Positions 32,983 through 62,658 of a stretch of 64,000 nt of DNA are shown here, piece by piece. Source of the DNA: Candidatus Tepidifontimicrobium thermophilum (GTDB taxonomy: Bacteria > Sysuimicrobiota > Sysuimicrobiia > Sysuimicrobiales > Sysuimicrobiaceae); the NCBI GenBank assembly GCA_031459915.1, contig JAVKHO010000007.1, positions 32,001-96,000 of the forward strand, given 5' to 3'. The number at the start of each line of letters is the position of its first letter. Position 1 is the first letter of the stretch. Made by a program: the position numbers and the translations under genes. The notes under the pieces are model-generated. The model ran no database searches and was not told where the DNA came from. It saw only the letters and a list, made by a program, of their open reading frames with translations.

Positions 32983-33058
<76 letters not shown>

Positions 33059-40303: not shown

Positions 40304-40325
40304 CCGGCTTCGGGGAAACGGGCGT

Positions 40326-40838: not shown

Positions 40839-41034
40839 CACGTCCTCCCGCGTACGGTCTGTCCTGAACGCATTATAGGCATGTACCACGCGGACCGCGA
40901 CCACAACGGCCCGTGCTATACTGCAGCCGGCCTCGGGGGTAGGGGTGGCGGCGCCCGGCAACCTTCCAGGAGAACGGCCCCGCGGGGTGGAAGAAGGAGG
41001 GCGAGAGGCCGATGACACAGGTAGGGGAGGCGCG

Positions 41035-41379: not shown

Positions 41380-41401
41380 GCGCTGCTGTGGGGGTGGCGG
41401 G

Positions 41402-43352: not shown

Positions 43353-43365
43353 GCAGCCCGGCCGT

Positions 43366-43394
43366 TTGACGCCCCCCGGCCCGGGGGCTATTCT
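43366..43394 (+). promoter_or_regulatory. sigma70-type promoter of the hem-ccm operon (TTGACG-N17-TATTCT)
   Basis: Near-consensus boxes with 17-nt spacing, ending 16 nt before the hemA ATG; spacer is a GC palindrome. Confidence 0.7.
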
Positions 43395-43410
43395 CGACCC
43401 AGAAATTGCC

Positions 43411-47373: not shown

Positions 47374-48650
47374 CGGCTTCGGAGGAACTGTTCCGGCGGG
47401 CCCGGCGCGTGATGCCCGGGGGGGTCAGCAGCCCGGTCCGGGCGTTCCGCGCGGTGGGGGGAAATCCGCCGTTCCTCGTGCGGGGCAACGGCGCGTACGT
47501 GGAGGACGCAGACGGACGGCGCTACGTGGACTGCGTGAACTCCTGGGGGGCGCTGATCCTGGGCCACGCGCACCCGGCGGTGGTGCGGGCAGCGCAGCAG
47601 GCGGTGGCCGACGGGAGCAGCTTCGGCGCGCCCACACCGTGGGAGGTGGAGTTCTGCGAGCGGCTGTGCGCAGCGGTGCCGTCGGTGGAGGCGGTCCGGT
47701 TGGTGAACTCGGGCACCGAGGCGGTCATGAGCGCCCTGCGGGTGGCTCGGGCTGCCACGGGCCGCGAGGGGGTGGTGAAGTTCGATGGCGGCTACCACGG
47801 CCACGCGGACGCCCTGCTGGTGCGCGCGGGTTCGGGGGTGGCCACCTTCGACCTGCCCGACAGCGCGGGGGTGCCGCCCTCGGCGGTGCAGGCCACCGTT
47901 TCCCTTCCGTACAACGACTTGGACGCGGCGCGGGCTTTTTTCGAGCGGCGCGGGCACGAGATCGCGGCGGTGTTGGTGGAGCCCGTGGCGGGCAACATGG
48001 GCACCGTTCCCCCCGAGCCGGGCTTCCTAGAGGGGTTGCGGGAGCTCACGGCCCGTTACGGCGCGCTGCTGGTGTTCGACGAGGTCATCACGGGCTTCCG
48101 GTTGCGGTACGGCGCGGCCCAGGAGGTGTTCGGGGTACGGGCAGACCTCACGTGCCTGGGGAAGGTCATCGGCGGCGGCTTCCCCTTGGCCGCCTACGGC
48201 GGCCGGGCCGACCTCATGCGGCTGGTGGCGCCCGAGGGCCCCGTCTACCAGGCGGGCACCCTCTCGGGAAACCCCGTCGCGGTGCGGGCGGGGCTCGCCA
48301 CCTTGGGGGTGCTGGAAGATGGAGCGGTCTACGCGCGGCTGGAGCACTGGGGCCACGTGCTCGAGGAGGGGTTACAGGACGCGGCCCGGCAGGCGGGCGT
48401 GGAGGTGTGGGTGAACCGAGTGGGCTCCATGCTGACGGTGTTCTTCACGCCGCAGCGGGTGGTGGACTACGCGACGGCCCGCAACTCTGACGCGGCGCGA
48501 TTCGCCCGGTTCTTCCACGGTATGCTGTCCCGAGGGGTGTACCTGCCGCCCTCGCCCTTCGAGGCCTGGTTTCTGTCCGCCGCCCACGGCGAGCAGGAGG
48601 TGGACCGGATCCTCCAGGCGGCCCGGGGGGCGTTCCAGGAGGCCGTATGA
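47370..48650 (+). CDS. hemL: glutamate-1-semialdehyde 2,1-aminomutase
   Basis: PGGVSSPVR, NSGTEA, FDEVITGFR, GKVIGGG, YQAGTLSGNP. Confidence 0.96.
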   Translation: MTASEELFRRARRVMPGGVSSPVRAFRAVGGNPPFLVRGNGAYVEDADGRRYVDCVNSWGALILGHAHPAVVRAAQQAVADGSSFGAPTPWEVEFCERLCAAVPSVEAVRLVNSGTEAVMSALRVARAATGREGVVKFDGGYHGHADALLVRAGSGVATFDLPDSAGVPPSAVQATVSLPYNDLDAARAFFERRGHEIAAVLVEPVAGNMGTVPPEPGFLEGLRELTARYGALLVFDEVITGFRLRYGAAQEVFGVRADLTCLGKVIGGGFPLAAYGGRADLMRLVAPEGPVYQAGTLSGNPVAVRAGLATLGVLEDGAVYARLEHWGHVLEEGLQDAARQAGVEVWVNRVGSMLTVFFTPQRVVDYATARNSDAARFARFFHGMLSRGVYLPPSPFEAWFLSAAHGEQEVDRILQAARGAFQEAV

Positions 48651-49390
48651 GCGGGCGTGTCCTGGTGGTGATGCCCCTGTACAACGAGGAGGCGACCCTC
48701 CAGGAGGTCCTGGAGGCGGTGCTGCACTACGCGCCACCCGGGACGGACGTCTTGGTGGTGGACGACGGCTCCACGGACGGCTCCGCGGAGATCCTGGCCC
48801 GCTTCCCGGAGGTTCGGGTGATCCGCCACCCGGAGAATCGCGGCTACGGCGCCTCCCTCATCGACGGCTTCCGCTACGCCCTCGACCACGGCTACGACGC
48901 AGTGGTCACCATGGACTGCGACGCCCAGCACGAGCCGTACCTGATCCCGGACCTGCTGAGTGCTTTGGAGGACGCGGACATCGTGTCCGGCAGCCGGTAC
49001 CTCCCCGGTTCGTCTCGGGGCCAGGAGCCGCCCCCGGATCGGCTGCGGATCAACCGGGAGGTCACCGAGCGGGTGAACGCGCTCACGGGCTACCGGCTCA
49101 CGGACGCCTTCTGCGGGTTCAAAGCGTATCGGGCCGACGCCCTGCGGCGGATGCAGCTGGACGAGCCCTCCTACGGCATGCCCCTGCAGGTGTGGGTGCA
49201 GGCTGCCCGGTGGGGGCTGCGGGTCCGGGAGATCCCCATCGGTCGCATCTACAAGAACCCCCACCGCCGGTTCTGGGGCGGTCTGGACGACCCGGAGGTC
49301 CGGCTGCGTTACTACCTGCAGGTGCTGGAGCGGGAGGCGGCTCGGTGGCTGCAGCAGCCGGCCTCCAGCGGGGAGGCGGGCGCGCGGTGA
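48647..49390 (+). CDS. family 2 glycosyltransferase (DPM1-like)
   Basis: PLYNE, VDDGSTD, NRGYG, TMDCDAQH, VSGSRY, DAFCGFKAY. Confidence 0.9.
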   Translation: MSGRVLVVMPLYNEEATLQEVLEAVLHYAPPGTDVLVVDDGSTDGSAEILARFPEVRVIRHPENRGYGASLIDGFRYALDHGYDAVVTMDCDAQHEPYLIPDLLSALEDADIVSGSRYLPGSSRGQEPPPDRLRINREVTERVNALTGYRLTDAFCGFKAYRADALRRMQLDEPSYGMPLQVWVQAARWGLRVREIPIGRIYKNPHRRFWGGLDDPEVRLRYYLQVLEREAARWLQQPASSGEAGAR

Positions 49391-50067
49391 AGACGGTCCT
49401 GGTCCTGGCCCCTCACCCCGACGACGCGGAGATCGCCATGGGTGGTACCATGGCCGCGCTGGTGGCGCAGGGCTGGCGGGTGGTGGTGTGCGACCTCACC
49501 GATGGCGAGCCCACCCCGGTGGGCACGCCGGAGCGGCGGCGGCGGGAGGCGGAACGGGCGGCGCGGATTCTCGGCGTGGAGCGCCAGATCCTGGACCTGC
49601 CCAACCGTTTCCTGCTGGACGGGGTGGAGGCGCGCAAGAAGGTGGCTGCGGTGATCCGGGCGGTGCGGCCCGAGTGGCTGTTCGTGCCGTACTGGGAGGA
49701 CGCCCACCCCGACCACGTCCAGGCCGCCACCCTGTGTGAGGCGGCGCGGTTCTACGCCAAGCTGACCCACACGGACATCCCGGGGGAGCCCCACTACCCG
49801 CGCCGGGTCGTGCACTTCTTCTCCACCCACTACCGCATGGTGCGGCGGCCGTCCTTCGTGTTCGACGTGAGCGAGACGCTGGAGCGCAAGATGGAGAGCC
49901 TGCGCGCGTACGAGAGCCAGTTCGGAGTTGAGCGGGGCAACTCCTGGGTCCTGGAGGCGGTGCGGGATGCCGCCCGCTACTTCGGTTCCCTGGTGGGCGT
50001 CTCGTACGGGGAGCCCTTCCTCCTGCGGGAGGAGCTCGGGGTGCGGAACCTGGAGGGGTTAGTGTGA
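49387..50067 (+). CDS. PIG-L/BshB1-like N-acetylglucosaminyl deacetylase
   Basis: APHPDDAE, DLTDGE, HPDH, KMESLRAYESQF, YGEPF. Confidence 0.88.
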   Translation: MKTVLVLAPHPDDAEIAMGGTMAALVAQGWRVVVCDLTDGEPTPVGTPERRRREAERAARILGVERQILDLPNRFLLDGVEARKKVAAVIRAVRPEWLFVPYWEDAHPDHVQAATLCEAARFYAKLTHTDIPGEPHYPRRVVHFFSTHYRMVRRPSFVFDVSETLERKMESLRAYESQFGVERGNSWVLEAVRDAARYFGSLVGVSYGEPFLLREELGVRNLEGLV

Positions 50068-51608
50068 CCGACGTGACCGAGCTGTCCATCCCCACGCGCC
50101 ACGGCGAGGTCCTCTGCACGCCTGAGTTCAGCCGTTGGCTGGAGCTGGCGGAAGCCACCGCCCGGCGGCTGGACGCAGCAAGCGTCTTCGGCCGGCCCCT
50201 GAGCGCTCTGCGGGCGCAGGCCCGGTCCGAGCTCGTGGGACGGGCCCAGGCCCTGCTGGGCCGCTGGGGCTTCGCGCCCCCTGAGGCCTCCCACGGTCCG
50301 TGGGTCGCCACCGGCCACCAGCCCGGCCTGTATCACCCGGGGATCTGGATCAAGACGTGGGCCGTGGACATCTGCGCGGGCCAGGGGGCGACCGGGCTGC
50401 ACGTGGTGGTGGACTCCGACGAGTGCCAGTCCTGGGGTGCCCGAGTCCCGAGGCGGGACGGGACGCTGCAGGGGGTGCAGCGGACCCTCGTGGAGTGCGG
50501 CGACGGTGTTCCCTTCGAGGCGGCCCCGGTACCCGAGGAGGCCCGCTGGCGGGCCTTCTGCGCACAGCTACGGGACGACCTCGGGACCCTCGGTCTCCCG
50601 GAGCTCCTGGAGCGGGTCTCCCGGGCAGAGCAGGCGGGCCTGGAAAGCCTCTCCCGCGCGCGGCACCTGGGCGATTTCGGGGCCGGCCTGCGCAGACGGT
50701 TGGAGACGAAGCACCGGCAGGTCCGCTACTGGGAGGTGACCGTATCCGAGCTGTCGGAGACGCAGGCCTTCGGCCAGTTCGCCGCCTGGATCGCCCAGGA
50801 TGCGGAGCGTTTTCGCGCCTGCCACAACGCGGCCCTGGACGAGTACCGCCGGCAGCAGGGCCTGCGCTCCCCGGCGCAGCCGTTCCCCAACCTACGGCGG
50901 GAAGGCGACTGGGTGGAGTTGCCCTTCTGGCTGGTGCGGGAGGGGAAGCGGCGGCCGGTATTCGTGCGGCCCGGAGCTCCTCCCGTGGTGTTCTGCGAGG
51001 GCAGGCCCGTAGGCGAGCTCACGGACCGTGGGCTGGAGGGCCTGCGCCCCAGGGCCCTCACCCTCACCCTGTTCCTGCGGCTTCTGGTGGCGGATCTGTT
51101 CGTGCACGGCGTGGGAGGCGCGCGCTACGACCGCGTCACCGACCGGGTCCTAGAGGAGTTCTTCGGAGTCACACCGCCGCCCTTCGCGGTCCTCACGGCC
51201 ACCTTCCATCTCCCGCTGGCGCGACACGCAGATCCCCGGGAGGCGTACGGGGCTGCGCAGCGTCTGTGGCTGGACCTGCAGCACAACCCGGACCGCCACC
51301 TGGCCGACCCCGCCCAGGCGCGTCCCCTGGTGGAGGAAAAGTGGCGCTGCATCCGGGCTCTGGAGGCCGCGGACCTGACCCGGTCCGCCCGCCGGGAGCT
51401 CGCCCGGCGCATCCGGGCCATCAACGAGGCTTTGCGGGCCCACGTGCAGGACCGGATCGCTGAAGTGGAGGCGGAGCTGGAGGCGTTGCGGCGGGAGGTG
51501 CAGGAACACGAGGTCGCCGCGGACCGAGGCTACCCCTTCTTCCTGTTCGACCCCGAGGAGGTCTGCGCGCCGTTGCGGGCGCAGGAGGGAGTTCGGTGCG
51601 GCCGCTAG
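50064..51608 (+). CDS. hypothetical protein, remote BshC-like ligase
   Basis: VATGHQPGLYHPGIWIK, VVDSD, FVHGVGGARYD and C-terminal coiled coil resemble BshC motifs and architecture. Confidence 0.6.
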   Translation: MTDVTELSIPTRHGEVLCTPEFSRWLELAEATARRLDAASVFGRPLSALRAQARSELVGRAQALLGRWGFAPPEASHGPWVATGHQPGLYHPGIWIKTWAVDICAGQGATGLHVVVDSDECQSWGARVPRRDGTLQGVQRTLVECGDGVPFEAAPVPEEARWRAFCAQLRDDLGTLGLPELLERVSRAEQAGLESLSRARHLGDFGAGLRRRLETKHRQVRYWEVTVSELSETQAFGQFAAWIAQDAERFRACHNAALDEYRRQQGLRSPAQPFPNLRREGDWVELPFWLVREGKRRPVFVRPGAPPVVFCEGRPVGELTDRGLEGLRPRALTLTLFLRLLVADLFVHGVGGARYDRVTDRVLEEFFGVTPPPFAVLTATFHLPLARHADPREAYGAAQRLWLDLQHNPDRHLADPAQARPLVEEKWRCIRALEAADLTRSARRELARRIRAINEALRAHVQDRIAEVEAELEALRREVQEHEVAADRGYPFFLFDPEEVCAPLRAQEGVRCGR

Positions 51609-52276
51609 ACCCCGTGGTGACGGACGCCCTGGGCCGGCGGTTCGGGGCCGTGGTGGCCCTGCGGGGCGTGGGACTCCGGGTCGGGGAGGGCACGTGTCTG
51701 CTGCTGTTGGGCCCCAACGGGTCCGGCAAGACCACCCTGCTTCGGGTGCTGGCCACGGCCTTGCGCCCTACGGAGGGCCGCGCGTGGGTGTGCGGCTACG
51801 ACGTGGTCTCGGAGGGTCACCGGGTGCGGGAACTGTGCGCTTTCCTGGGGACGTCCCCAGGCGTGTACGCGGGCCTCACCGGGTTCGAGAACCTGTGCCT
51901 GGCCGCGGACCTGTGTGGCCGGCCCCGGCGGCAGGTTGCGGAGCTGCTGGGGTGGGCCGGGCTGGAGCAGGTGGCCCACAGGCTGGTACGCACTTACAGC
52001 CTCGGCATGCGGCGGCGGCTCGCCCTGGCGCGGGTCCGTTTGCAAGAGCCCCGGGTCCTGCTCTTGGACGAGCCCTTCGTGGGTCTGGACGAGGAGGGGA
52101 CCCGGCTGGTGGGCGAGCTGGTGACGGGGATCAAGAAGCAGAAAGGCGCGGTGGTCCTGGCCACCCACGACCGGCACCGCGCCCGGGCCGTGTGCGACGC
52201 GGTGGCAGAACTGGAGTCGGGCACGCTGCTGAGCTCGGGAACCGCGGGGCTCGCAGGAGCAGTGAGCCGGGGATGA
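51596..52276 (+). CDS. ccmA: heme exporter ATP-binding subunit
   Basis: GPNGSGKTT, YSLGMRRR, LLDEPF; heads ccmBCDE. Confidence 0.85.
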   Translation: MRPLDPVVTDALGRRFGAVVALRGVGLRVGEGTCLLLLGPNGSGKTTLLRVLATALRPTEGRAWVCGYDVVSEGHRVRELCAFLGTSPGVYAGLTGFENLCLAADLCGRPRRQVAELLGWAGLEQVAHRLVRTYSLGMRRRLALARVRLQEPRVLLLDEPFVGLDEEGTRLVGELVTGIKKQKGAVVLATHDRHRARAVCDAVAELESGTLLSSGTAGLAGAVSRG

Positions 52277-52926
52277 AGGCATGGCGGCGGGTGGCGGCCG
52301 TGGCCCGCAAGGACCTTCTCCTGGAGTGGCGCGGGCGCGACGCGGTGCTCCCCGCGGGCAGCTTCGGCTTCGCAGTCCTGCTGGTGCTAGGGCTGGTGTC
52401 CGGAGGTGGGGGGGAAGCCGCACCGTCGGCGCTGTGGGTGTCCGTCCTCCTGGCGGCAGTGCTGGCGGCAGGACGCGGTGCGGACCGGGAAGGAGAGGAG
52501 GGGACCCGGGAGGTGCTGCTGCTGTACCCCGGCAGCCGCGAGGACCTGTTCTGGGGAAGGTGGCTGGCTCTGTGCGTGGTGCTGCTGGTCCTGGCTGCGG
52601 GACTGTGGTGCGCGCAGGTTCTCCTGTTTGACGCTCCAACCCGCGGGGCGGGCGTGCTGATCCTGGCGGCCCTGTTGGCTACAGCGGGGCTCGGCGCGGC
52701 GGGCACGTTGCTGGCCGCGCTGGTGGCCCACGTGCGGGCAGGACCGTTGCTGATGCCCCTTCTGTTCCTGCCCGCCACGGTTCCCGTGTTGCTGGCGGGA
52801 GTGCGGCTTTCCGAGACCGCGGCCTCCGGAGCGCCTGCGGGCCCGTGGTGGGGCGTGCTGGTGGTGTTCGACCTCCTGTTTTTGCTGGTGGGCCCCGTCC
52901 TGTTCGAGCTGGTGGTGGAGGGGTAG
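52273..52926 (+). CDS. ccmB: heme exporter permease
   Basis: RKDLLLEWR, E.EEGT, LMPLLFLPATVPVLL. Confidence 0.88.
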   Translation: MKAWRRVAAVARKDLLLEWRGRDAVLPAGSFGFAVLLVLGLVSGGGGEAAPSALWVSVLLAAVLAAGRGADREGEEGTREVLLLYPGSREDLFWGRWLALCVVLLVLAAGLWCAQVLLFDAPTRGAGVLILAALLATAGLGAAGTLLAALVAHVRAGPLLMPLLFLPATVPVLLAGVRLSETAASGAPAGPWWGVLVVFDLLFLLVGPVLFELVVEG

Positions 52927-52928
52927 GC

Positions 52929-53567
52929 TTGCGGGCGTTCGCGGTGGGAGGGACTGCGGCGCTGTTGAGCGTGGGCCTGTTCCTGGCCCTGTGGGGCTCC
53001 CCCCCGGACGCCTACCAGGGCGAGTACGTACGGATCATGTACGTGCACGTCCCTGCGGCGGTAAGCGCCTACGGGGCCGCCGCGGTGGCCTTCGGGGCTG
53101 GTGCCCTGTACCTGTGGCGGCGCGACCGGCGGTGGGACTTCGTCGGGCGCGCGGGCGCGGAGCTAGCGGCCCTGTTCTCCGGGCTGACCCTCCTCACCGG
53201 GATGCTCTGGGGAAAGCCCGTGTGGGGCGTGTGGTGGGCGTGGGACGCCCGGCTGGTCACCACCGCGGTGCTGTTCCTGCTGTACGTGGGCTGCCTGCTG
53301 GTCCGAGATCTCGCGGACGACCCCGAGCGGGGCCGGAGGCTGTCCGCGGCGGTGGCGGTGCTGGCCTTCCTGGACGTGCCGGTGGTCCACTACTCGGTGG
53401 TGTGGTTCCGGACCCTGCACCAGGGCCCGTCCATCAGCCTGCAGGGTGTGAAGTTGGCGCCGGAGTTCCTCCTGCCGCTGGCGGTGAACGCCGTGGCCTA
53501 CCTGGCCCTGCTGAGTGTGCTGCTGGCCGAACGGGCGCGCCTCGCGAGTCTGGAGGGGGAACGTTGA
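52929..53567 (+). CDS. ccmC: cytochrome c biogenesis protein CcmC
   Basis: YVHVP, WWD motif WGKPVWGVWWAWDARL, RTLHQ; TTG start inferred. Confidence 0.93.
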   Translation: MRAFAVGGTAALLSVGLFLALWGSPPDAYQGEYVRIMYVHVPAAVSAYGAAAVAFGAGALYLWRRDRRWDFVGRAGAELAALFSGLTLLTGMLWGKPVWGVWWAWDARLVTTAVLFLLYVGCLLVRDLADDPERGRRLSAAVAVLAFLDVPVVHYSVVWFRTLHQGPSISLQGVKLAPEFLLPLAVNAVAYLALLSVLLAERARLASLEGER

Positions 53568-53692
53568 GCCCCTGGGCGTGGGTACTAACCGCGTACGGCT
53601 GCGCCGCCCTGCTGGTGGGCGTTTACGCCTGGCGCCTGTGGCGCCGCTTGCGGCAGGTGTCCAGGGCCAGGCTGGGAGAGGGGGAGACGTGA
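53564..53692 (+). CDS. ccmD: heme exporter protein CcmD
   Basis: 42 aa, WVLTAYG TM segment plus basic tail, overlapping ccmC and ccmE. Confidence 0.8.
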   Translation: MSPWAWVLTAYGCAALLVGVYAWRLWRRLRQVSRARLGEGET

Positions 53693-54099
53693 AGCGCCTA
53701 CGGCTTGCTGCCGCGGTGTTGCTGGTGGTGGGTTCCCTGGGCTACGTGGTGGCCGGCGGGCTCCGGGAGGCGGTGGTGTACTACGTGACGCCCACGGAGC
53801 TGCAGTCCAGGACCCTGGACCCCCGACGGCCGGTGCGGGTCGGCGGACAGGTAGTACCCGGCTCCCTCCGGCGAGAGGGCGGTGCGCTGCGCTTCGTGCT
53901 GTCCGACGGGCAGGCCCGGCTGCCGGTGCGGTTTGCGGGCAGCGTGGAGGGGCTGCTGGTGGAAGGGCAGGGCGCGGTGGTGGAAGGCCGGCTGGGGCCG
54001 GACGGAACCCTGGAGGCCCGCAGCGTGGTGGTGAAGCACTCGGAGGAGTACACTCCACCCCGCTCTCCGTTGCCACCCGCGGAGCGGAACGCGCCCTGA
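53689..54099 (+). CDS. ccmE: heme chaperone CcmE
   Basis: YYVTPTE, VRVGGQVVPGS, EGQGAVVEG, KHSEEY (HxxxY). Confidence 0.93.
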   Translation: MKRLRLAAAVLLVVGSLGYVVAGGLREAVVYYVTPTELQSRTLDPRRPVRVGGQVVPGSLRREGGALRFVLSDGQARLPVRFAGSVEGLLVEGQGAVVEGRLGPDGTLEARSVVVKHSEEYTPPRSPLPPAERNAP

Positions 54100-54289
54100 G
54101 CCAGCGCGGCTGGCCCGGCGTCCACGGACCGGAAGCGCTTGACGGGCTCGGATCGGGGCACGGAAAATCGTGGCCGGACCTTCACGGAGGGGGCCGAGAG
54201 GCTCCCTCTTTGCGTGTGCAGGCCGAAGAGGAGTCCGGGCATCGGAAGTCAAAAAGACACGCCAGCTCATTTTTGATTCGGGAGGCAGG

Positions 54290-55192
54290 TTGCACCGACG
54301 GCAAGCCGGACCCCTGTGCGGCCGGCGGCCCCGCGGGGGGGCCGGCGGGTTGTTGCTGCTGGTGGCGGCGATTCTCGGCCTCGCGGGCTGCCAGCCGTAC
54401 GTCGGGGTGAGCACCCCCGCCAGGGAGGCCTACCAGCCCCTGGAAGGGTTCGTGGTGCGCATGAACTTCATGCCCCGCAAGCCCAGCGCGGACGAGGGCC
54501 GCAAGATCTACGAGGCGCGCTGCGCGGTGTGCCACGGGCCCGAGGGCCGTGGGGACGGCCCCATGGCGGAGCAGCTGACCGCTCCGGAGAAAAACCCGTA
54601 CACGGACTTCTTGAGCCTGTTCCGCATCCACCCCAAGACCGAGCCGCTGCCGAGTCGGCCCGCCCGCTTCAACAACCTGGACCAGATGCGGTTGAACGCG
54701 CCGTTCGCCCTGTTCGAGACTATCGCCCGGGGCCGGCCCCACACTGCCATGCCCGGCTTCCAGCATCCCGCCTACGGTGCCGTGGATGGGGGTGATCCGC
54801 GCCTTACGGACGAACAGATCTGGGACGTGCTGTTCTGGGAGTGGAGCCGGACCACGAGCCGGGACCGGCTGGCACAGGGAAGGCGGATCTACAACCAGCT
54901 GTGCGCCAGCTGCCACGGGGTGGCGGGCGACGGGAACGGTCCCGAGGCCGCCCGGATCCGCGAGCAGGTGTGGACGTGGGCGCGGGGTGTGGGGCCGGGG
55001 ATCTTCACGGACCGGGACTGGATGGCCTACCGGAAGCCCACGGAGCTGTACCAGAAGATCGCGGAGGGAGTGCAGCGGCGCGGGCTGGAGCTCATGCCCG
55101 CCTACGCGGGCAAGCTCTCGGCGGACCAGATCTGGAGCGTGGTAGAGTACCTGTGGACGTTCGTGTACACGCCGCCGCAGGACCTGCGCTAG
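54290..55192 (+). CDS. diheme c-type cytochrome lipoprotein
   Basis: Lipobox LAGC, CAVCH..AMP and CASCH..LMP; TTG after GGAGG. Confidence 0.88.
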   Translation: MHRRQAGPLCGRRPRGGAGGLLLLVAAILGLAGCQPYVGVSTPAREAYQPLEGFVVRMNFMPRKPSADEGRKIYEARCAVCHGPEGRGDGPMAEQLTAPEKNPYTDFLSLFRIHPKTEPLPSRPARFNNLDQMRLNAPFALFETIARGRPHTAMPGFQHPAYGAVDGGDPRLTDEQIWDVLFWEWSRTTSRDRLAQGRRIYNQLCASCHGVAGDGNGPEAARIREQVWTWARGVGPGIFTDRDWMAYRKPTELYQKIAEGVQRRGLELMPAYAGKLSADQIWSVVEYLWTFVYTPPQDLR

Positions 55193-55220
55193 CTGCGGGT
55201 GCGGCAACGGAGGCGGGGCT

Positions 55221-55865
55221 GTGAACCGTCGGACGTTCCTCAAGGCGCTGAGTGCGGTGCCGGTGCTGGGGGGTCTCGGCGCCTTCCTGGCGCCGGTGCT
55301 GCGCTACCTGAAGCCGAACCTGGAGCCGGGGCTGGGGGTTCCCCAGGGGAAGGTGCCCCCGGACCTCGCGGAGGGGGACCTCCCGAAGGGGGAGCCGCTC
55401 CCCATCGCCACCCTGGAGGAGCTGCGCGAGCCCTGGTCCAGCAAGTTCTTCGTGTTCACCCAGAAGTACCCGCAGTACACGCCGGAGCTGGCCAAGGCGG
55501 CCACGGTCCCCGGGGTGGCCATCAAGCTGCCGTGGAAGTTGAGCTTCCCCGGCTACAAGGCCGGGAAGGAGCCCACGGACATCGTGGTGTTCTCCCGCAT
55601 CTGCCCGCACCTGGGCTGCATCTTCAACTACGTGCCGAACTGGCGGGAGGTCACGGCGGGCTACGGCGGGTACGTGCCGCCGGAGGAACGTCGCCACGGC
55701 CTCATGGCCTGCCCCTGCCACCTGTCCATCTACGACCCCGCGGACCGGGAGGTGCCCGGCCGGGTGCTGTCGGGACCCGCGCCCCGGCCCCCCCGCTACT
55801 TCACCTACGAGATCCGCGACGGGGTCATCGTGGTGACGGGCGCCGAGCCCGGCGGGATCGCCTAG
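55221..55865 (+). CDS. Rieske [2Fe-2S] protein
   Basis: Tat motif NRRTFLK, CPHLGC and CPCH boxes, GPAPRP. Confidence 0.95.
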   Translation: MNRRTFLKALSAVPVLGGLGAFLAPVLRYLKPNLEPGLGVPQGKVPPDLAEGDLPKGEPLPIATLEELREPWSSKFFVFTQKYPQYTPELAKAATVPGVAIKLPWKLSFPGYKAGKEPTDIVVFSRICPHLGCIFNYVPNWREVTAGYGGYVPPEERRHGLMACPCHLSIYDPADREVPGRVLSGPAPRPPRYFTYEIRDGVIVVTGAEPGGIA

Positions 55866-55877
55866 GGAGCCGGAGCG

Positions 55878-57026
55878 ATGTGGGACCGGTTGCGGGAGTG
55901 GTTCCGGGAGCGCAAGGAGAAGCTGGACCTTTTCGACGAGACCCAGGTCGACCGCCAGGACAACCCCCTCTACCTCCTCGGTCAGATCGTGTACTTCGCG
56001 TGGATCGCGGTGGTGGTGAGCGGGATCCTGCTCATGATCTGGTACGAGCCCACCACCCACGGCGCCTACAACTCCATCCTCCGCATCCAGCACGAGGTCC
56101 CCTTGGGCTGGCTGATCCGCGGGGTGCACAAGTACGGCGCGGACATGCTGATCCTCGCCATCACCCTGCGCATCTACCGGATGTACTTCCTGGGCGAGTA
56201 CAAGCGGCCCAACGAGCTGTCGTGGATGATCCTGTTCGGCTCCCTGGTGCTGGCCATGATCTCCGGCCTCACGGGGTACCTGCTGATCTGGAACCAGCGG
56301 GCCTTCTGGGCGGCGAAGGTAGTCCTCACGGTGGCGGTGTACCTGGATGAGCTGCCCCTCATCGGGCAGACGCGGTTCGGCAGCGCCATCGCCTTCGCCT
56401 TCCTGGGTGGGCCCGCGGAAGGGCAGGGGACTCTCACGCGCTTCTACGCCATCCACTTCGGCATCTCGGCCCTGCTGCTGGTGGCGGCGGAGATCTACTT
56501 CTACTTCACCCGGCGGCGCCGGTTCGTGTTGTCCCCCACCGCTTTGGTGATCCTGGCCCTCATGCTGGTGGTCACCAGCTACGTGTTCCCCGCGGAGATG
56601 GGCCGGCGGGCCGACCCCAACCGGACGCCGCTCCCGATCCTTTCCGACTGGTACTTCCTGGCGCTGTACCAGTACGTGAAGTACACCCCGCCCCTGTGGG
56701 CCGGGCTGGGGCCGGGTCTGCTGATCGCGTACGGGATGCTGGTGCCGTTCCTCGACCGCAGTAAGGGCCGCAGGCCGTCCGAGCGCCCCTTCTTCACCGT
56801 GGTGGGAATTATGGCCCTGACCTACTTCCTGGTGTTCACCGCTCTCATCATGTTCAACATCGCCGTGATCGGGAGGGACCCGCACGTGGTCCTGCTGGTC
56901 ACCGCCGCCACCCTGGGTCTGGGCCTGGTGTTGGAGTTCCGTTACCGCCGGCGGAGGAAGCTCGCAGAGGCCGCCGCGCCGGCCCCGGCGCCGCGGGCCG
57001 CGCCGGCCCGGGCGACGGTGGGGTGA
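55878..57026 (+). CDS. cytochrome b (copy 1): bL ligands and Qo-type motifs kept, bH ligands lost
   Basis: RGVH, TGYLLIWNQRAFWA, RFYAIH, PILSDWYFL; second His of helices B and D replaced by Arg and Tyr. Confidence 0.92.
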   Translation: MWDRLREWFRERKEKLDLFDETQVDRQDNPLYLLGQIVYFAWIAVVVSGILLMIWYEPTTHGAYNSILRIQHEVPLGWLIRGVHKYGADMLILAITLRIYRMYFLGEYKRPNELSWMILFGSLVLAMISGLTGYLLIWNQRAFWAAKVVLTVAVYLDELPLIGQTRFGSAIAFAFLGGPAEGQGTLTRFYAIHFGISALLLVAAEIYFYFTRRRRFVLSPTALVILALMLVVTSYVFPAEMGRRADPNRTPLPILSDWYFLALYQYVKYTPPLWAGLGPGLLIAYGMLVPFLDRSKGRRPSERPFFTVVGIMALTYFLVFTALIMFNIAVIGRDPHVVLLVTAATLGLGLVLEFRYRRRRKLAEAAAPAPAPRAAPARATVG

Positions 57027-57030
57027 GGCG

Positions 57031-57294
57031 GTGGAGGCGGTCCGGTTCGGGATGGCTTTCGGCCTGGCGGTAGCAGGCCTGCACGGCACCTGGCAGGCGG
57101 CGCGCCTGGCGTGGGTACAGCCCCAGCCGGAGCGGTGGCTTGTGGCGGCCGGGTGGCTGGCGGTGCTGGTGGTCTCGGCCGCGTGGGCGGGCTACCTGCT
57201 GTACGCCGCGGACCGCCGGGCGGGCCGGGTGCGTCGACGGGTCGCGGTGTACGAGCGCTGGCTGGCTTTCCAGCGAGGCGGGAGGTGGGCGTGA
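57031..57294 (+). CDS. small two-TM membrane protein
   Basis: Two hydrophobic segments, tightly packed in the operon. Confidence 0.7.
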   Translation: MEAVRFGMAFGLAVAGLHGTWQAARLAWVQPQPERWLVAAGWLAVLVVSAAWAGYLLYAADRRAGRVRRRVAVYERWLAFQRGGRWA

Positions 57295-57494
57295 GGGAGC
57301 CAGAGCGCGGCGGCTGGTACCTGGCGGTGGCGGGCTTTCTGGCGGTACTGGCCCTGGCGTGCGTCGGCCTGATGGTGTACGGGGAGTGGTTCGACCGGCG
57401 CCTGGTGGCCTCGGGAGCCGTGGGCGTGCTGCTGGTGCTGTACGCCGTCATCGTGGTGCTGTTCCGCAAGGCGCACCTCACCGCGGAGGACTAG
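57291..57494 (+). CDS. small two-TM membrane protein
   Basis: GTGA overlap, GGAGG RBS, two hydrophobic segments. Confidence 0.7.
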   Translation: MREPERGGWYLAVAGFLAVLALACVGLMVYGEWFDRRLVASGAVGVLLVLYAVIVVLFRKAHLTAED

Positions 57495-57495
57495 G

Positions 57496-58671
57496 GTGTA
57501 CCGGCGGTTGTTGCTGAGCCTGCAGAGTGCCACCCTGCGGTTGGACACCTGGATCAACCGCGTCCTGCCGCAGGACTTCAACCCCCTGTACTACACCGGG
57601 GGGCTGTCGAACCTGTTCCTCACCATCCTGGTGGTGTCGGGGATCCTCATCTTCCTGTACTACGAGCCGAGCCTGGAGGGCGCCTACGCCTCGGTGGAGT
57701 TCCTCACCCGCGACGTGCCCTACGGGGTCGTGTTCCGCGGGATCCACCGCTACGCCGCGGACGCGTACCTGGTGGCCATCCTCCTGCACCTGTTCCGGAA
57801 CTGGTTCACGGACCGCTACCGGGAGGCCCGGGACAGCCAGTGGCTGTCGGGGATGTTCCTGCTGGTGGTGTCGGGCTTCGCGGGCTTCACCGGCTACCTG
57901 TTGGTGTGGGACGAGCGGTCGCAGCTGCTGACGAGCCTCACGGTACAGGCCCTGAGGTCCGTCCCCCTGGTGGGAGACCGGCTCGCCCGGGTATTCCTGG
58001 GGGGCCCCGGGGTGAGCGACACCACCCTGCCGCGGTTCCTGTTCCTCCACGTGGGGCCCGCCATGACCCTGTACGTACTCCTGTGGTGGCACTACGTGCG
58101 CCTCCGCCACCCCAAGATCTGGCCCCCCTCCGTGTGGGTGCTGTTCAGCCTGGGCCTGCTGTTCATCCTCGCTTCCGCCTTGCCCGCCACGAGCGGACGG
58201 CCGGCGCAGCCGGGCGCCTCGCCGGAGGGGTTCGCGGTGGACTGGTTCTTCCTGTGGCCGTACGTGCTGGCCCGCTGGCTGGCGCCCGGTTGGGCCCTGG
58301 CCCTGGTGGTGGCCCTGGTGGCATACGGCATGGTGGTCCCCTACACCCTGCGGGAGACTCCGGAGCAGCGGGGCGTCCGGGCCTTGGGCCAGGCGGTGGT
58401 GGTGGAGGAGAACTGCACGGGCTGCGAGCTGTGCTACTACGACTGCCCGTACAACGCCATCTACATGGTGCCGAGCCCGTACCCGGGGAAGAGCCGGGCT
58501 GCGGCCAACCGGAAGCTGCTGGCAGTGGTGGTGGACTCCCGGTGCGTGGAGTGCGGGATCTGTATCGGCGCCTGCCCCTTCGAGGCCCTGGAGTTGCCGA
58601 GGATGCTGGACAAGGACGTACAGCAGCGCATCCAGCGGGGCGCACGCGCCGCGGCCCCGGTGGGTTCCTGA
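57496..58671 (+). CDS. cytochrome b (copy 2) fused to a 2x[4Fe-4S] ferredoxin domain
   Basis: H-x13-H in helices B and D; CTGCELCYYDCP and CVECGICIGACP at the C-terminus. Confidence 0.92.
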   Translation: MYRRLLLSLQSATLRLDTWINRVLPQDFNPLYYTGGLSNLFLTILVVSGILIFLYYEPSLEGAYASVEFLTRDVPYGVVFRGIHRYAADAYLVAILLHLFRNWFTDRYREARDSQWLSGMFLLVVSGFAGFTGYLLVWDERSQLLTSLTVQALRSVPLVGDRLARVFLGGPGVSDTTLPRFLFLHVGPAMTLYVLLWWHYVRLRHPKIWPPSVWVLFSLGLLFILASALPATSGRPAQPGASPEGFAVDWFFLWPYVLARWLAPGWALALVVALVAYGMVVPYTLRETPEQRGVRALGQAVVVEENCTGCELCYYDCPYNAIYMVPSPYPGKSRAAANRKLLAVVVDSRCVECGICIGACPFEALELPRMLDKDVQQRIQRGARAAAPVGS

Positions 58672-58681
58672 GGCGAGAGCC

Positions 58682-59113
58682 ATGGCGACGGTACCGGATC
58701 GGACCCCGCAGGCGGAGGAGGCAGCCCCCCGGGTCGTGGGGTTCCTGTGCGACTGGGCGGTACGCAGCGAGGGGCTCCTGAGCGCCGACGACACCCTGGT
58801 AGGCATGCCGCATGTCACGGTGATCCGGGTCCCCTGCTCAGGGTTCGTCAAGCCCGGGTGGTTGGAGCTGGCGCTGCGCAGCGGCGCCGCGGGCGCCTTC
58901 GTGTGCGGTTGCCCCATGGGGGACTGCCTCAACCGGGAAGGCAACTGGATCATGGAGGATCGCATCGACCAGCTGCGGAAGCGTTTGAGCCGGCAGAAGG
59001 TGGACCCTGAGCGGGTCGCGTTCTTCGCCTTCGGCCTGCACGAGCGGGAGGACTTCCTGCGCGCGGTGGCGGAGTTCGTGGACCGGGTGCGCGGATCCGG
59101 AGGGAAGCGGTGA
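58682..59113 (+). CDS. MvhD/FlpD-like [2Fe-2S] protein
   Basis: GFLCDW, IRVPCSG, GCPMGDC..REGN, VDPERV. Confidence 0.88.
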   Translation: MATVPDRTPQAEEAAPRVVGFLCDWAVRSEGLLSADDTLVGMPHVTVIRVPCSGFVKPGWLELALRSGAAGAFVCGCPMGDCLNREGNWIMEDRIDQLRKRLSRQKVDPERVAFFAFGLHEREDFLRAVAEFVDRVRGSGGKR

Positions 59114-59226
59114 CGCGGTTTGGCCCGAAACGGTGGAAGACGTACCTGTGGTACGCCCTGTTCTACCTGGTGTTCTTTGCCCTGTTGCTGTTCGTGGCGG
59201 CCTTCGGTCTGGTGGCGGAGGCGTAG
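59110..59226 (+). CDS. 38-aa single-TM membrane protein (below ORF-track cutoff)
   Basis: MTRFGPKRWKTYLWYALFYLVFFALLLFVAAFGLVAEA; GTGA overlap with the MvhD-like gene; GC3-biased codons. Confidence 0.75.
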   Translation: MTRFGPKRWKTYLWYALFYLVFFALLLFVAAFGLVAEA

Positions 59227-59241
59227 CGGAAGGGACACGGG

Positions 59242-60636
59242 ATGCTGGCGTGGATGTTCACCGACGAGCGATGGAGCTCCGTCCGGCGGTTCCTGTACGC
59301 GGGCGCGCTGTGGGGGATCCTGGCGCTGGCCTACGAGGCGCTGGCCGCCGCGCAGCGGGCCTGGCCGCAGGTCCTCGCGGACGTCCCCTGGGTGTCCCAC
59401 GGGCGGGTGGTGGCCACCGGACAGGACCTGTGGGTGTTCGGTTTCCTGTCCCACCTCCTGGTGGGCGCGGCGCTGCGGGTGGTGGGACAGGGCGACCGGG
59501 AGGGGCTGTGGAGCGAGCCCCTCGCGAACCTGAGCCTGTGGCTGTGGACTGTGGCGCAGGTGCTCAGCTGGTGGTGGATCTCCACGGGCTGGACCCGAGG
59601 CCGACCGCTCGGTGAGGCTCCCTGGCCGGTGGACCTGCTCCGGCTAGCGGGCGCGCTGCTTCTGTTGTGGGTGGTTCGCAACACGCTCGTCCGATCTCCC
59701 CGTAGGGACCCCGCGCTGGCCCTGGTGTTCGCGGGCTTCACCGGGCTGCCTCTGGTCCTAGTACTGGGGAAGGGCTTGTTCTGGCCCTTCGACAACCCCT
59801 ACCACGGGATCCTGGACGCTCTGAGCCAGGCGTTCCTGCGGGCAGGCCTGGTCTGGCTATGGGGGGTCCCGCTGGCCGGTGGGGTCTGCCTGTACGTCCT
59901 GTCGGCCCTGACCGGCCGGCGCGGGCTTTCGGAGGGAGTGGGCTTCGCCGCCCTGTTCGGCCTGGTCAGTTTCGGGGCTCTCGCTGGGCCCGCGGAGTTC
60001 GTGTGGGGTCCGGTGCCGTTCTGGGTGCAGACCGTGGGCGCTGTGGCGCAGGGGCTGCTGGTGTTGCCGGTGGCGACGCTGCTCGTGGGTGCCGCGCGGT
60101 CGCTGGAAGGGCACTGGCAGTCCCTCGGGGACCACCCCGGTGTGGTCTTCGTGCTGGCGGGCTGGCTGGCGCTGACCTCCGGCGTGTCTTTGAGCGCGCT
60201 GGCGTCCCTCGTGGGTCCCAGCCGCGTGGTGCACCTCTCCCTGTGGGGAGAGGGGGTGCGGGTTCTGGTGCTGGGCGGCTGTGCCGCGGTGGCCGTGGGG
60301 TGTGCGTACCTGCTGACGCCACACGTGCTGGGACGCTCGCTAGCGAGCCGGGCCCTGGCCTGGCGGCATCTGTGGCTGGTGGTGGTGGCGTGGGCGCTCT
60401 CTGCGCCCGCGCTGCTGCTGGCGGGTCTGAGCCAGGGTGCGGCTTGGGCCACGGGCACGGTGCCCTTCGCTCACGCGGTACAGGCCAGCCGGCCCCTGCT
60501 GGCCGTGGCCTGGGCCGCGGCTCTGCTGGTGTGGGTCGGCCAGGCGGTGTTCGCGTGGAACCTGTTCTTGACCTCAGACTCCGGGGAACCGGTTCCCGCA
60601 GCGGAGCAGGAGCTCCTGCCGGTGGCGGGGTCTTAG
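59242..60636 (+). CDS. degenerate cbb3-type oxidase subunit I (CcoN)-like membrane protein with no metal ligands
   Basis: About 12 TM; SHGRV, TRGRPLGEAPW, GPVPFWVQT, LAWRHLW, GLSQGAAW landmarks align with CcoN; followed by a CcoO-like gene. Confidence 0.75.
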   Translation: MLAWMFTDERWSSVRRFLYAGALWGILALAYEALAAAQRAWPQVLADVPWVSHGRVVATGQDLWVFGFLSHLLVGAALRVVGQGDREGLWSEPLANLSLWLWTVAQVLSWWWISTGWTRGRPLGEAPWPVDLLRLAGALLLLWVVRNTLVRSPRRDPALALVFAGFTGLPLVLVLGKGLFWPFDNPYHGILDALSQAFLRAGLVWLWGVPLAGGVCLYVLSALTGRRGLSEGVGFAALFGLVSFGALAGPAEFVWGPVPFWVQTVGAVAQGLLVLPVATLLVGAARSLEGHWQSLGDHPGVVFVLAGWLALTSGVSLSALASLVGPSRVVHLSLWGEGVRVLVLGGCAAVAVGCAYLLTPHVLGRSLASRALAWRHLWLVVVAWALSAPALLLAGLSQGAAWATGTVPFAHAVQASRPLLAVAWAAALLVWVGQAVFAWNLFLTSDSGEPVPAAEQELLPVAGS

Positions 60637-60671: not shown

Positions 60672-61130
60672 GTGAGGGATGCCGTGGGAGCTGTAGGGCG
60701 GCTGGTGGTGGCCGCGGTGGTGTGCGGGTTTGTGGTGACCGCCCTCCTGCCCGCCCTAGATCCTGCGGTCCGGACCGCGCGGGCGGCGCCCCTGTCAGCC
60801 CAGGCGGCGCGGGGGCGGTGGGTGTACGTGAGGGAGGGGTGTGTGGTCTGCCACACCCAGCAGGTGCGAGGGGTGGAGGCCCGGTTCGGCGTGGTGCGCG
60901 CGCCGGGTGACGTGGGGCAGGCTTCAACTGCGGAGCAGTACTCCGGTCAGGACCCCGTGCTGCTGGGTCGGCTGCGCCTAGGGCCGGACCTGTCAAGGGT
61001 AGGGGCGCGTACCTCGGGACAGGAATTGCGGACGGCGCTGCTGTCGGGCACGGGGGGCATGCCCTCGTACCGGTACCTCTCGGACGCGGAGCTGGCTGAC
61101 CTGGTGGCGTACCTGCTGGCGCTGCGGTAG
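60672..61130 (+). CDS. CcoO/FixO-like monoheme cytochrome c
   Basis: GRWVYVREGCVVCHTQQVR, RLGPDLSRVG, MPSY. Confidence 0.88.
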   Translation: MRDAVGAVGRLVVAAVVCGFVVTALLPALDPAVRTARAAPLSAQAARGRWVYVREGCVVCHTQQVRGVEARFGVVRAPGDVGQASTAEQYSGQDPVLLGRLRLGPDLSRVGARTSGQELRTALLSGTGGMPSYRYLSDAELADLVAYLLALR

Positions 61131-61138: not shown

Positions 61139-61684
61139 ATGGGAAACGAAACGACCACCGCGAGGCCTTCCCGCTGGCTGCTGGCGCTGTACGTGCTGCT
61201 GCCTTTGTGGGCCCTGGCGTACCTGTTCGTGGCGGGTGGGCTGGTGCAGCCGGAAATCAGGCCGGTGGCGCGGAACGTGGAGGGTGTTTCTGCAGGCACC
61301 GCCGCGGCGCCGGACGGCTCCGAGCACGTGATGGGCATCCTGGCGGTGGTCCCGGAGGACGCCAGGGACGACCAGCCCCCGCGTCCGGTGACGGACGCCA
61401 TGCTGGCCCAGGCGAAGGCCCAGTACGACACCCTGTGCGCGGTGTGCCACGGACCCGAGGGACGCGGGGACGGCCCCGCGGGCGCGGCCCTGAACCCGAA
61501 ACCCCTCAACTTCCACTTCCGGGCCTTTCAGGAACGGATGCCGGTGGGCGCTACCCACTGGGTGATCAAGAACGGCCTGGGCAACACTCCCCGCCGCAGC
61601 GGGATGCCGGCCTTCGGCCAGCTACCGGACGACCAGATCTGGGCCCTGGTGGAGTACGTCCGGCGGCTGGGCCGCCAGCCATGA
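61139..61684 (+). CDS. membrane-anchored monoheme cytochrome c
   Basis: N-terminal TM, CAVCHG..GDGP, GMPAF. Confidence 0.9.
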   Translation: MGNETTTARPSRWLLALYVLLPLWALAYLFVAGGLVQPEIRPVARNVEGVSAGTAAAPDGSEHVMGILAVVPEDARDDQPPRPVTDAMLAQAKAQYDTLCAVCHGPEGRGDGPAGAALNPKPLNFHFRAFQERMPVGATHWVIKNGLGNTPRRSGMPAFGQLPDDQIWALVEYVRRLGRQP

Positions 61685-62658
61685 CGCAGGCCGCGGCAGA
61701 CGCCCTGGCCTCCGCCTACGCCCCGGTTCGCGAGGACCTGGAGCGGCTGCAGGACCTGCTGCGCCAGGAACTGGCGGCCCACGACCCCTTCCTCATGGAG
61801 CTGGTGTCGCATGTGCTGCATACCCGCGGCAAGATGGTGCGGCCGGCCCTGGCGTTCCTGTGCGCGCGCCTGGCAGGAGGGGGAGGGGCGCACCGTGACC
61901 TGGTGGCTGCGGCGGTGGAGCTCATCCACGTGGCCAGCCTCATCCACGACGACGTGATCGACGAGGCCGACCGCCGGCGCGGTCAGGCGACGCCCAACGC
62001 CCGGTGGGGCAACCACGTGGCGGTGTTGCTGGGTGACTACCTGTTCAGCAAGGCCTTCCACCTGCTCTCCCGAGTCGGGCGGGACGACGTGGCGAGCCGG
62101 GTGGCCTTCGCCACCGTGCGCATGAGCCAGGCGGAGCTGCTCCAGGTCAAGTACGGCAACACCCCGCACACGGACGAGTCGGTGTACTTTGCCATCGTGG
62201 AAGGCAAGACCGCCCAGCTGGTGTCCTCCGCGTGCGCGGGAGGGGCGCTGGTGGGGGGAGGGGACGGGGATCTGGCGGAGCGGCTGGGCACCTTCGGGCT
62301 GCACTGGGGCGTGGCCTTCCAGATCACCGACGACACCCTGGATCTCACCAGCGACCCGGAAGTCCTAGGCAAGCCGATTGGCAGCGACGTCCGGGGAGGG
62401 AAGGTCACCCTGCCCTTGATCCACGCGCTCCGCCACGCGGACGAGCAGGGGCGCCGGCGGCTGGAGAAGTGGATCCGGGCAGGCGAGCTGGCCCCGCTCC
62501 GGCACGCCCTGGAGACATCCGGGTCCTTCGCCTACGCCCTGGAGGTGGCCCGGCAGCACGCCCAGCGGGCGCTCCGCATCCTGGAGACACTTCCGGGAGG
62601 GCCGGAGCGTGACAGCTTGGCGGCCCTCACGGAGTTCGTGGTCTCCCGCCGCCACTAG
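61681..62658 (+). CDS. long-chain polyprenyl diphosphate synthase (quinone side chain)
   Basis: GKMVRP, LIHDDVID..RRG, GKTA, FQITDDTLD, GKVTLP. Confidence 0.93.
   Translation: MTQAAADALASAYAPVREDLERLQDLLRQELAAHDPFLMELVSHVLHTRGKMVRPALAFLCARLAGGGGAHRDLVAAAVELIHVASLIHDDVIDEADRRRGQATPNARWGNHVAVLLGDYLFSKAFHLLSRVGRDDVASRVAFATVRMSQAELLQVKYGNTPHTDESVYFAIVEGKTAQLVSSACAGGALVGGGDGDLAERLGTFGLHWGVAFQITDDTLDLTSDPEVLGKPIGSDVRGGKVTLPLIHALRHADEQGRRRLEKWIRAGELAPLRHALETSGSFAYALEVARQHAQRALRILETLPGGPERDSLAALTEFVVSRRH

Follow-up and report, generated by a model that had tools for sequence, protein, structure and literature searches.

A conserved operon for a Rieske protein, two complementary cytochromes b and a predicted cytoplasmic iron-sulfur arm in Candidatus Tepidifontimicrobium thermophilum

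The operon and its two cytochromes b

The subject of this work is a group of eight genes at positions 54290-59226 of a 64,000-nucleotide stretch of DNA (hereafter the window) from Candidatus Tepidifontimicrobium thermophilum, a member of the Sysuimicrobiota, which encodes a Rieske iron-sulfur (Fe-S) protein, two unlike cytochromes b (here termed B1 and B2) and an MvhD-like protein. The eight genes share the + strand, and the start-to-stop gaps between them range from -3 to +29 nt. The coordinates of the open reading frames (ORFs), together with domain scans, agree with an earlier note, made from the sequence alone, which had described one tightly packed operon at this place. The genes are the following (TM, transmembrane; Qo, quinol-oxidation site; bL and bH, the two b haems):

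54290..55192, +, diheme cytochrome c lipoprotein (two CxxCH motifs, PF00034/PF13442, lipobox LAGC)
55221..55865, +, Tat-exported Rieske [2Fe-2S] protein (TIGR01409, PF00355, TIGR01416)
55878..57026, +, cytochrome b B1 (bL ligands H84/H193 only, R98, Qo motifs, E205; eight predicted TM helices)
57031..57294, +, small membrane protein s1 (87 aa; position conserved)
57291..57494, +, small 2-TM protein s2 (67 aa; position conserved)
57496..58671, +, cytochrome b B2 (four His, six predicted TM helices, then a 2x[4Fe-4S] domain at residues ~300-368)
58682..59113, +, MvhD/FlpD-like [2Fe-2S] protein (PF02662, 89.9 bits)
59110..59226, +, 38-aa single-TM peptide (conserved C-terminal end)

In alignment to cytochrome b6, the two cytochromes b, which share 34% identity, show the features that the earlier note had ascribed to them. 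B1 carries the motifs WNQRAFWA and SDWY and the bL pair His84 and His193 in the haem helices, and its Arg98 and Tyr207 align to the bH ligands; B2 possesses all four His (H84, H98, H185 and H199) together with the degenerate Qo motifs WDERSQLL and VDWF. As judged from these residues, B1 is a protein that can bind haem bL only and whose Qo side is strictly conserved. Among 315 distinct homologues, which remain of 382 rows once duplicates are removed, H84 is found in 314/314 and H193 in 315/315, and position 98, the bH column of helix B, is occupied by Arg in 298, by Lys in 17 and by His in none. The earlier note had proposed to check whether close homologues of B1 keep the bH His residues; the loss is conserved, and as it is common to all 315, sequencing error or local decay of B1 can be ruled out. 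Position 207 is Tyr, Phe or Leu in 305 of 314 rows and His in five. These five rows are a blemish on a fully clean pattern, although bis-His ligation of bH is impossible in them, as none has the partner His in helix B. W144, A145 and the S-D-W motif are invariant among the 315 homologues, an invariance that is inflated in those loci which were searched for with motif patterns taken from the Qo side of B1; the B1 sets based on hidden Markov models give the same pattern in the core clade. The conservation of the cd1 and ef segments amounts to 0.84 and 0.89 in B1 vs 0.53 and 0.55 in B2. In a library clustered at 50%, the His-Arg-His pattern is that of the top-scoring representatives, and cytochromes b with four His start below ~200 bits, while a metagenome scan with the Qo pattern of B1 returned only close relatives (at least 61% identity). 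B1 thus lacks the four axial His of a canonical Q-cycle cytochrome b; its Qo side is present with one haem.

Three divergent homologues (P0237, P0238 and P0240) form a sister subgroup of B1 that keeps the Arg-for-His replacement and has a PDWY motif and an altered cd1 motif; two of them carry a large insert after the first helix. In B1 itself, an N-terminal D-L-F-D-E motif and several residues on the cytoplasmic side are invariant despite the loss of bH. E205 (codon 56490-56492) is conserved in 313/314 homologues and sits in the predicted dimer interface described below; it may serve a proton path, a quinone contact or the docking of the Fe-S arm. A salt bridge between R98 and E205 that would fill the haem pocket was considered and not adopted, as E205 lies two residues before the haem-facing column, in the predicted interface.

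The features of B2 are as strictly kept. In 145 distinct homologues, the four His are found in 144/144, 143/143, 139/139 and 138/138 of the rows with a letter at these positions, and the eight Cys of the ferredoxin domain in 131/131 rows covering them. Position 145 is Leu, Ile or Val in 141/142, and Trp is never among the commonest letters at position 144. The column of position 145 is that of the Gly of WGQMSFWG in the mitochondrial-type reference cytochrome b, and presumably that of G158 in Rhodobacter capsulatus. B2 therefore has both sets of haem ligands, and with a bulky residue at the Gly column it lacks a canonical Qo site in the same chain. The canonical quinone-reduction (Qi) site is likewise missing. 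The column of the Qi-His holds Arg, Ser, Thr, Ala, Gln or Asn, with no His in 204 B1/B2 pairs, the short D-E linker has no Lys-Asp where helix E begins, and a Tyr stands at the column of the Cys that binds haem ci, so that neither the bc1-type His/Lys/Asp nor the b6f-type Cys is found. The latter belongs to the CxGG motif of b6f-type cytochromes b (PMC5600118). On the same N side, at the edge of bH, Y32 (204/204), W197 (202/204) and R202 (204/204) are conserved. The complementarity of B1 and B2 remained unchanged in 204 distinct pairs after 80 loci from Vampirovibrionia had been added, and it extends to homologous operons across phyla, a point which the earlier note had proposed to test.

The remaining redox proteins of the operon retain their cofactor ligands. 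The Rieske protein possesses both cluster boxes and a Tat signal, with a c-type cytochrome acceptor encoded in the same operon. In box II, Ser is found in 150/150 and Tyr in 137/150 distinct homologues, two residues that raise the potential of the cluster (PMC12954380), and the protein is accordingly predicted to be of high potential. The diheme cytochrome c, whose gene starts with TTG preceded by GGGAGG (in the ORF prediction the frame begins at 54170), is likely the acceptor of electrons from the Rieske protein. The MvhD/FlpD-like protein, the sole one in the genome, aligns to 5odc_D (E 8e-17) with the Cys columns of the cluster retained; the [2Fe-2S] ligands C23, C52, C77 and C82 (alignment numbering) are each conserved in at least 97% of 64 homologues, and no TM segments are predicted. 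The three small ORFs (s1, s2 and the TM peptide) have no Pfam match. An s1-like ORF separates B1 from B2 in 13/13 loci inspected, and the TM peptide follows MvhD on its 3' side in 11/13.

The order cytochrome c, Rieske, B1, two small proteins, B2, MvhD, TM peptide recurs in several phyla, under the labels Sysuimicrobiota/Armatimonadota, Fimbriimonadaceae, Anaerolineae and Melainabacteria, and one B1 cluster also carries Holophagaceae labels; the closest homologues are labelled Armatimonadota/Sysuimicrobiota. In 177 loci, wherever the contig leaves room, the Rieske gene lies upstream of B1 in 156/157, B2 downstream of B1 in 147/148, and MvhD downstream of B2 in 128/129. In the genomes of the lone locus where B2 does not follow B1 and of one stand-alone B1, B2 is encoded elsewhere. 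Both genes are present in 79/94 genomes of the phylum of the window (one gene only in 2+2, neither in 11) and in 132/301 genomes of Vampirovibrionia (one gene only in 1+3, neither in 165); these counts are descriptive, as related genomes are not independent. In both surveys together, B1 occurs without B2 in 3/214 B1-positive genomes. In the phylum of locus L062, B1 was found in 7/151 genomes. B1 and B2 are the only cytochrome b genes in the genome of the window (96% complete), and many genomes of the same phylum carry further ones. In a member of the Vampirovibrionales (L077/G182) the operon is split: B1, followed by 6.6 kb of other sequence, and B2 lie on different contigs. Probably as a contaminant, a cytochrome b of the vertebrate mitochondrial type turns up on a 16.7-kb contig of another genome (L186, G094:C24 900-2700).

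Pairing of the cytochromes b and the path of the electrons

The AlphaFold2 model of B1 (pLDDT 78) has eight membrane-type helices, and that of B2 (pLDDT 79) has six long ones followed by the ferredoxin domain; in a Foldseek comparison, the best match of the cytochrome b fold has an E value of 6e-10 and a TM-score of about 0.55. Coming after TM helix six, the ferredoxin domain is predicted from the model and the canonical topology to lie on the cytoplasmic side, and not in the periplasm, where its presence would have contradicted the earlier note. The same note had asked for a model of the B1:B2 pair. Complex modelling, which covered this pair only, gave B1:B2 with three haems a score of 0.70 vs 0.00 for the best of three controls, where the mark is reached by 116/157 solved complexes and by 2/215 mismatched pairs. 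The runs share at least 96% of contacts, the pLDDT of the partner chain is at least 77, and the predicted interface involves helix A and helix D from each chain, as in the dimers of bc1 and b6f. Covariation in the 204 distinct pairs (effective number 53-134) placed none of the 40 top inter-chain pairs in the predicted interface; this is a weak test, in which the top intra-chain pairs were likewise unlike fold contacts, and being underpowered it carries no weight either way.

If the two proteins pair in this manner, an electron leaving haem bL of B1 would have to cross the dimer to haem bL' of B2. That such a route is workable, as the earlier note assumed, is supported by an engineered bc1 complex, in which G158W inactivates Qo in one half and H212N removes the upper branch in the other, and which turns over via a 14 A bridge between the two bL haems (PMC4330944). 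Taking the ligand patterns, the complex model and this analogy together, we regard a heterodimer in which electrons run from Qo(B1) over bL and bL' to bH' as highly probable.

The two cytochromes b appear to have come together from different sources. Of 22 longer homologues of B2, 15 are fusions of cytochrome b, ferredoxin domain and MvhD that span 91-98% of B2, and eight of these 15 have further CxxCH motifs. All 15 share with B2 the four His as well as N29, P30, G35, R107, R112, W116, R202, D249 and P282, and they too have a bulky residue at position 145. In a tree of 38 rows chosen by hand, B2 and the fusions form one clade (100/99) and B1 another (100/99). An arrangement with B1 and B2 as sister duplicates was rejected (p-AU 0.0014, LG+G4), in agreement with a quick tree of 81 rows, and the separation of B1, B2 and the fusions from canonical cytochromes b (78/39) is neither shown nor rejected. 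Thus, of the earlier statement that the two copies have lost reciprocal functions, the complementary pattern stands and the history does not: because B2 groups with Rieske-less fusions that are already blocked at Qo, and the B1+B2 clade is rejected, B2 was probably recruited as a ready-made wire without Qo rather than degraded from a duplicate. In this history, a cytochrome b with Qo only would have joined a pre-existing Rieske-less cytochrome b-ferredoxin-MvhD wire.

The separate ancestry would also suit two independent homodimers that are merely co-regulated, with B1 and the Rieske protein as a one-haem, non-bifurcating quinol:cytochrome c reductase, and B2 with MvhD as a wire of its own. 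B2-like wires do occur without B1 or Rieske, and the score of the B1:B2 model may stem from the memory of homodimers. Precedents exist for the loss of bH ligands in a single gene, in Pyrobaculum (PMC4122944) and in clade K (PMC5600118). Yet B1 is almost never found without B2, even where the operon is split. Moreover, a bL that is retained without an outlet is a dead end, as the logic of the Q-cycle has it blocked after one turnover. We therefore consider two homodimers very improbable.

Menaquinone is likely the quinone of the host, because MenB (over the cut-off) and an adjacent UbiA-family gene are present in the genome and the markers of the futalosine pathway were not found (no match to MqnA/D or MqnC in the genome). 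According to the reading that we favor, to which we give an even chance, the complex would be an obligate B1:B2 heterodimer that oxidises menaquinol only at B1, and the low-potential electron would go to B2 and then to the cytoplasmic Fe-S arm instead of a Qi quinone. Menaquinol would bifurcate at Qo of B1, with the first electron passing to the Rieske protein, the diheme cytochrome c and a haem-copper oxidase, and the second from bL to bL', bH', and the [2Fe-2S] cluster of MvhD and the [4Fe-4S] clusters; protons would be released outside and one charge would cross the membrane. The cytoplasmic electron would be handed to a partner at about the level of NAD(P)+ or flavodoxin or, alternatively, would return to menaquinone via a ferredoxin-type complex I, in an "extended Q-cycle". 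It is a tentative proposal, which falls short of an even chance, that we deal here with a natural, obligately asymmetric complex III devoid of a Q-cycle, which would send one electron to O2 and one across the dimer to an HdrA-type arm, and whose arm would reduce NAD(P)+ or flavodoxin/ferredoxin, or refeed the quinone pool via a complex I without NuoEFG. Among the 132 Vampirovibrionia genomes with both B1 and B2, a NuoF-family match is found in 13 and none in 119, and NuoD in 5/5 tested; related genomes are again not independent, and the carriers without NuoF agree with an earlier remark on a partial complex I (PMC6349859).

The combination of menaquinone with a high-potential Rieske protein has been argued to drive the reduction of NAD(P)+ in the complexes of anammox bacteria (PMC12954380). 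Several points weigh against the reading of the arm as an exit, or against the heterodimer as such. Assuming +250 to +300 mV for the Rieske protein and -70 mV for menaquinone, the second electron reaches at best ~-390 to -440 mV, and after a membrane potential of 150 mV ~-240 to -290 mV, barely enough for NAD+ and insufficient for typical ferredoxins; this calculated reach favours acceptors at the NAD(P)+ level or higher, or recycling by complex I, over ferredoxin proper. No gene for an NAD(P)- or flavin-binding partner is found in the inspected loci, and the genome of the window has a complete complex I cluster with NuoEFG (C30), so that recycling by complex I misfits some carriers. Y32, W197 and R202 of B2 could line a non-canonical menaquinone site, and the related Rieske-less fusions often end in cytochrome c (the eight with CxxCH), which suggests that the wire can run the other way. 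Finally, the pass of the B1:B2 model may come from the memory of bc1 and b6f dimers.

The near-invariance of Y32, W197 and R202 around the edge of bH is also the main attraction of a half-site Q-cycle, in which the heterodimer would reduce menaquinone at a site of B2 next to bH', with the Fe-S arm feeding the second electron or serving as a buffer. This would avoid the energetic strain of an exit, and aerobes without NuoF may use ferredoxin as their cytoplasmic currency. An entry of ferredoxin at centre N, with a role for haem ci and FNR, has been proposed for b6f (PMC5600118). Against it speaks the lack in B2 of the Qi-His, of Lys-Asp at helix E and of the haem-ci Cys; the same N-side residues are kept, besides, in the Rieske-less fusions without Qo, and hence need not serve a Q-cycle. 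Bulky aromatic residues, furthermore, occupy columns that line the Qi pocket of bc1. On balance we regard the half-site Q-cycle as unlikely.

The arm could, in turn, be an input, with electrons flowing from the Fe-S clusters to bH', bL' and bL, and menaquinone being reduced at the outer site of B1, or the electrons continuing through this site to the oxidase by way of the Rieske protein, in a valve that oxidises ferredoxin. B2 with MvhD is a split form of the fusions that so often end in cytochrome c, and the passage from low-potential clusters to the haems is downhill. Taken in order, the tail of B2 and MvhD correspond to adjoining C-terminal stretches of the HdrA2 profile, and the ferredoxin and MvhD part of HdrA2 is the input relay in Hdr complexes. 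However, such a flow would dissipate the membrane potential and would leave unexplained both the strict conservation of the quinol-oxidation motifs of B1 and the Ser and Tyr of the Rieske protein; in this genome, moreover, the complex is the only cytochrome b/Rieske route from menaquinol to cytochrome c. An input function is thus improbable in our opinion.

Flanking genes and the host genome

The operon is followed on the same strand by genes related to a cbb3 oxidase and is preceded by a weak promoter candidate:

54139..54168, +, sigma-70-like promoter candidate between ccmE and the cytochrome c gene (weak; 1 vs 0.3 +/- 0.6 in shuffles)
59242..60636, +, CcoN-like protein without CuB and haem His ligands (PF00115/TIGR00780, ligand columns)
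60672..61130, +, CcoO-like monoheme cytochrome c (PF02433)
61139..61684, +, membrane-anchored monoheme cytochrome c (PF13442/PF00034)

The CcoN-like protein lacks the six His ligands of cbb3 oxidases: all four ligand motifs are gone at full length of the protein, while they are intact in loci L060, L062 and L064. As judged from these columns, it is likely non-catalytic, and it is possibly a scaffold that remained from a cbb3 oxidase. The His-less form lies downstream of the operon in 20/177 loci, all close relatives, and an intact ccoN lies upstream in 32/177. Genes for the maturation of cytochrome c (ccm) stand directly 5' of the operon (window 51596-54099), and a polyprenyl synthetase gene stands 3' (61681-62658); both positions recur in most Sysuimicrobiota-type loci. 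As for RNA, the contigs of run X1 span the operon evenly and a control stretch of the window likewise, and the runs with raw reads yielded 7 reads and 1 read.

Elsewhere the genome encodes three high-scoring haem-copper oxidase subunits and has a cluster for a cytoplasmic NiFe hydrogenase that includes a HydG-type subunit. A second degenerate ORF of the haem-copper-oxidase type (weak PF00115; G000:C4 87356-88621) directly follows a B-type-like oxidase. Apart from the nuo cluster on C30 there is a second, partial complex-I-like set (nuoB, nuoD and nuoI by inspection; G000:C8 50292-52462), which might partner the Fe-S arm. At G000:C10 about 39000-52600, a group of Hdr-like, ETF-like and glycine-cleavage-H-like genes, recognised by inspection, presumably resembles a sulfur-oxidising sHdr system. 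A second Rieske gene, stand-alone and with no cytochrome b beside it (L001 7871-8776 on the - strand, equal to G000:C14 about 32870-33775), encodes a protein that is 85% identical from residue 26 on and has a different N-terminus; it looks like a stray or broken duplicate.

Comparison with known systems

Engineered mutants have been the basis of the debate on whether electrons pass between the two bL haems during normal turnover. If the heterodimer is true, the enzyme described here would need this crossing in every turnover and would provide a natural test. If, in addition, the Fe-S arm serves as an exit, bifurcation from quinol would supply carriers in the cytoplasm with no need of a Qi site; such a mode has until now been proposed for anammox complexes only. 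With its spread over the phylum of the window and the Vampirovibrionia, the operon bears on the respiration of the non-photosynthetic sisters of Cyanobacteria; should the reading without a Q-cycle hold, it would encode the principal complex III of an uncultured phylum of wide distribution, as well as that of the aerobic sister lineage of Cyanobacteria. A large survey of cytochrome b excluded all sequences in which one or more of the four His is missing (PMC4122944), and B1, which lacks the full set, would have been removed by it.

With the canonical bc1, b6f and Firmicute-type bc complexes the system shares the Rieske protein, cytochrome c, the cytochrome b fold, the bL ligands, a variant of the Qo motif and the predicted A/D face. 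It differs from them in that the operon encodes two unlike cytochromes b, of which B1 lacks the bH ligands and B2 is blocked at Qo, with no canonical Qi ligands or haem-ci Cys, and in the cytoplasmic arm of 2x[4Fe-4S] and MvhD. The likeness to the cross-inactivated bc1 of Rhodobacter (PMC4330944) is closer: one half is without bH, a bulky residue occupies the place of the Qo Gly in its partner, and the only path runs from bL to bL'. However, the pair described here is natural, conserved across phyla and derived from two distant lineages of cytochrome b, and its receiving half has Fe-S centres and no canonical Qi site.

B2 has the architecture reported for the PDWF-FeS clade (PMC4122944) and the large cytochromes b of subfamily H (PMC5600118), namely a four-His cytochrome b with 2x[4Fe-4S] and MvhD, here with MvhD as the next gene. 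It groups with fusions of the same architecture (the clade supported by 100/99 above), in a tree whose rows do not include the named published members. In those families the cluster holds no Rieske gene and MvhD forms part of the fusion; in the present operon MvhD has a gene of its own, and the wire is accompanied by B1, cytochrome c and the Rieske gene that nearly all loci hold upstream of B1. Clade G' of Dibrova and coworkers was rejected as the identity of the system, as its listed members have four His (PMC5600118).

Melainabacteria have been reported (Soo et al. 2017, as cited in bioRxiv 10.1101/531145 and in PMC6349859, the latter of which calls the proteins b6f subunits) to carry an operon for complexes III and IV, with an oxidase of the C family and two cytochrome bc proteins. 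With ccoN, ccoO, cytochrome c, Rieske, B1, B2 and MvhD, the Vampirovibrionia loci belong to the same operon family; the citing passages are silent on the loss of bH, the blocked Qo, the Fe-S/MvhD arm and a heterodimer. The asymmetry of the cytochromes b is not described in the literature searched, where the main text of PMC11604079 contains neither "cytochrome" nor "Rieske", and the supplements of Soo et al. 2017 and Dibrova et al. 2013 may bear on its novelty. What is already in print is the two-cytochrome-b operon of Melainabacteria, the cytochrome b-4Fe-4S-MvhD fusions, and single cytochromes b missing one bH ligand.

The Rieske/cytochrome b complexes of anammox bacteria that include an NAD(P) oxidoreductase (PMC12954380) resemble the present system in menaquinone, a high-potential Rieske protein, a cytoplasmic arm and the proposed bifurcation. 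They are modelled as typical dimers with the NAD(P) oxidoreductase encoded, in contrast to the asymmetric cytochrome b pair described here, which has no flavoprotein in the inspected loci and no gene for an anammox-type NAD(P) oxidoreductase beside the operon, either in the window or in the listed loci. Thus, among these relatives, the operon stands as a real, conserved and unusual system, which departs from the canonical Q-cycle complex in several of its defining features.

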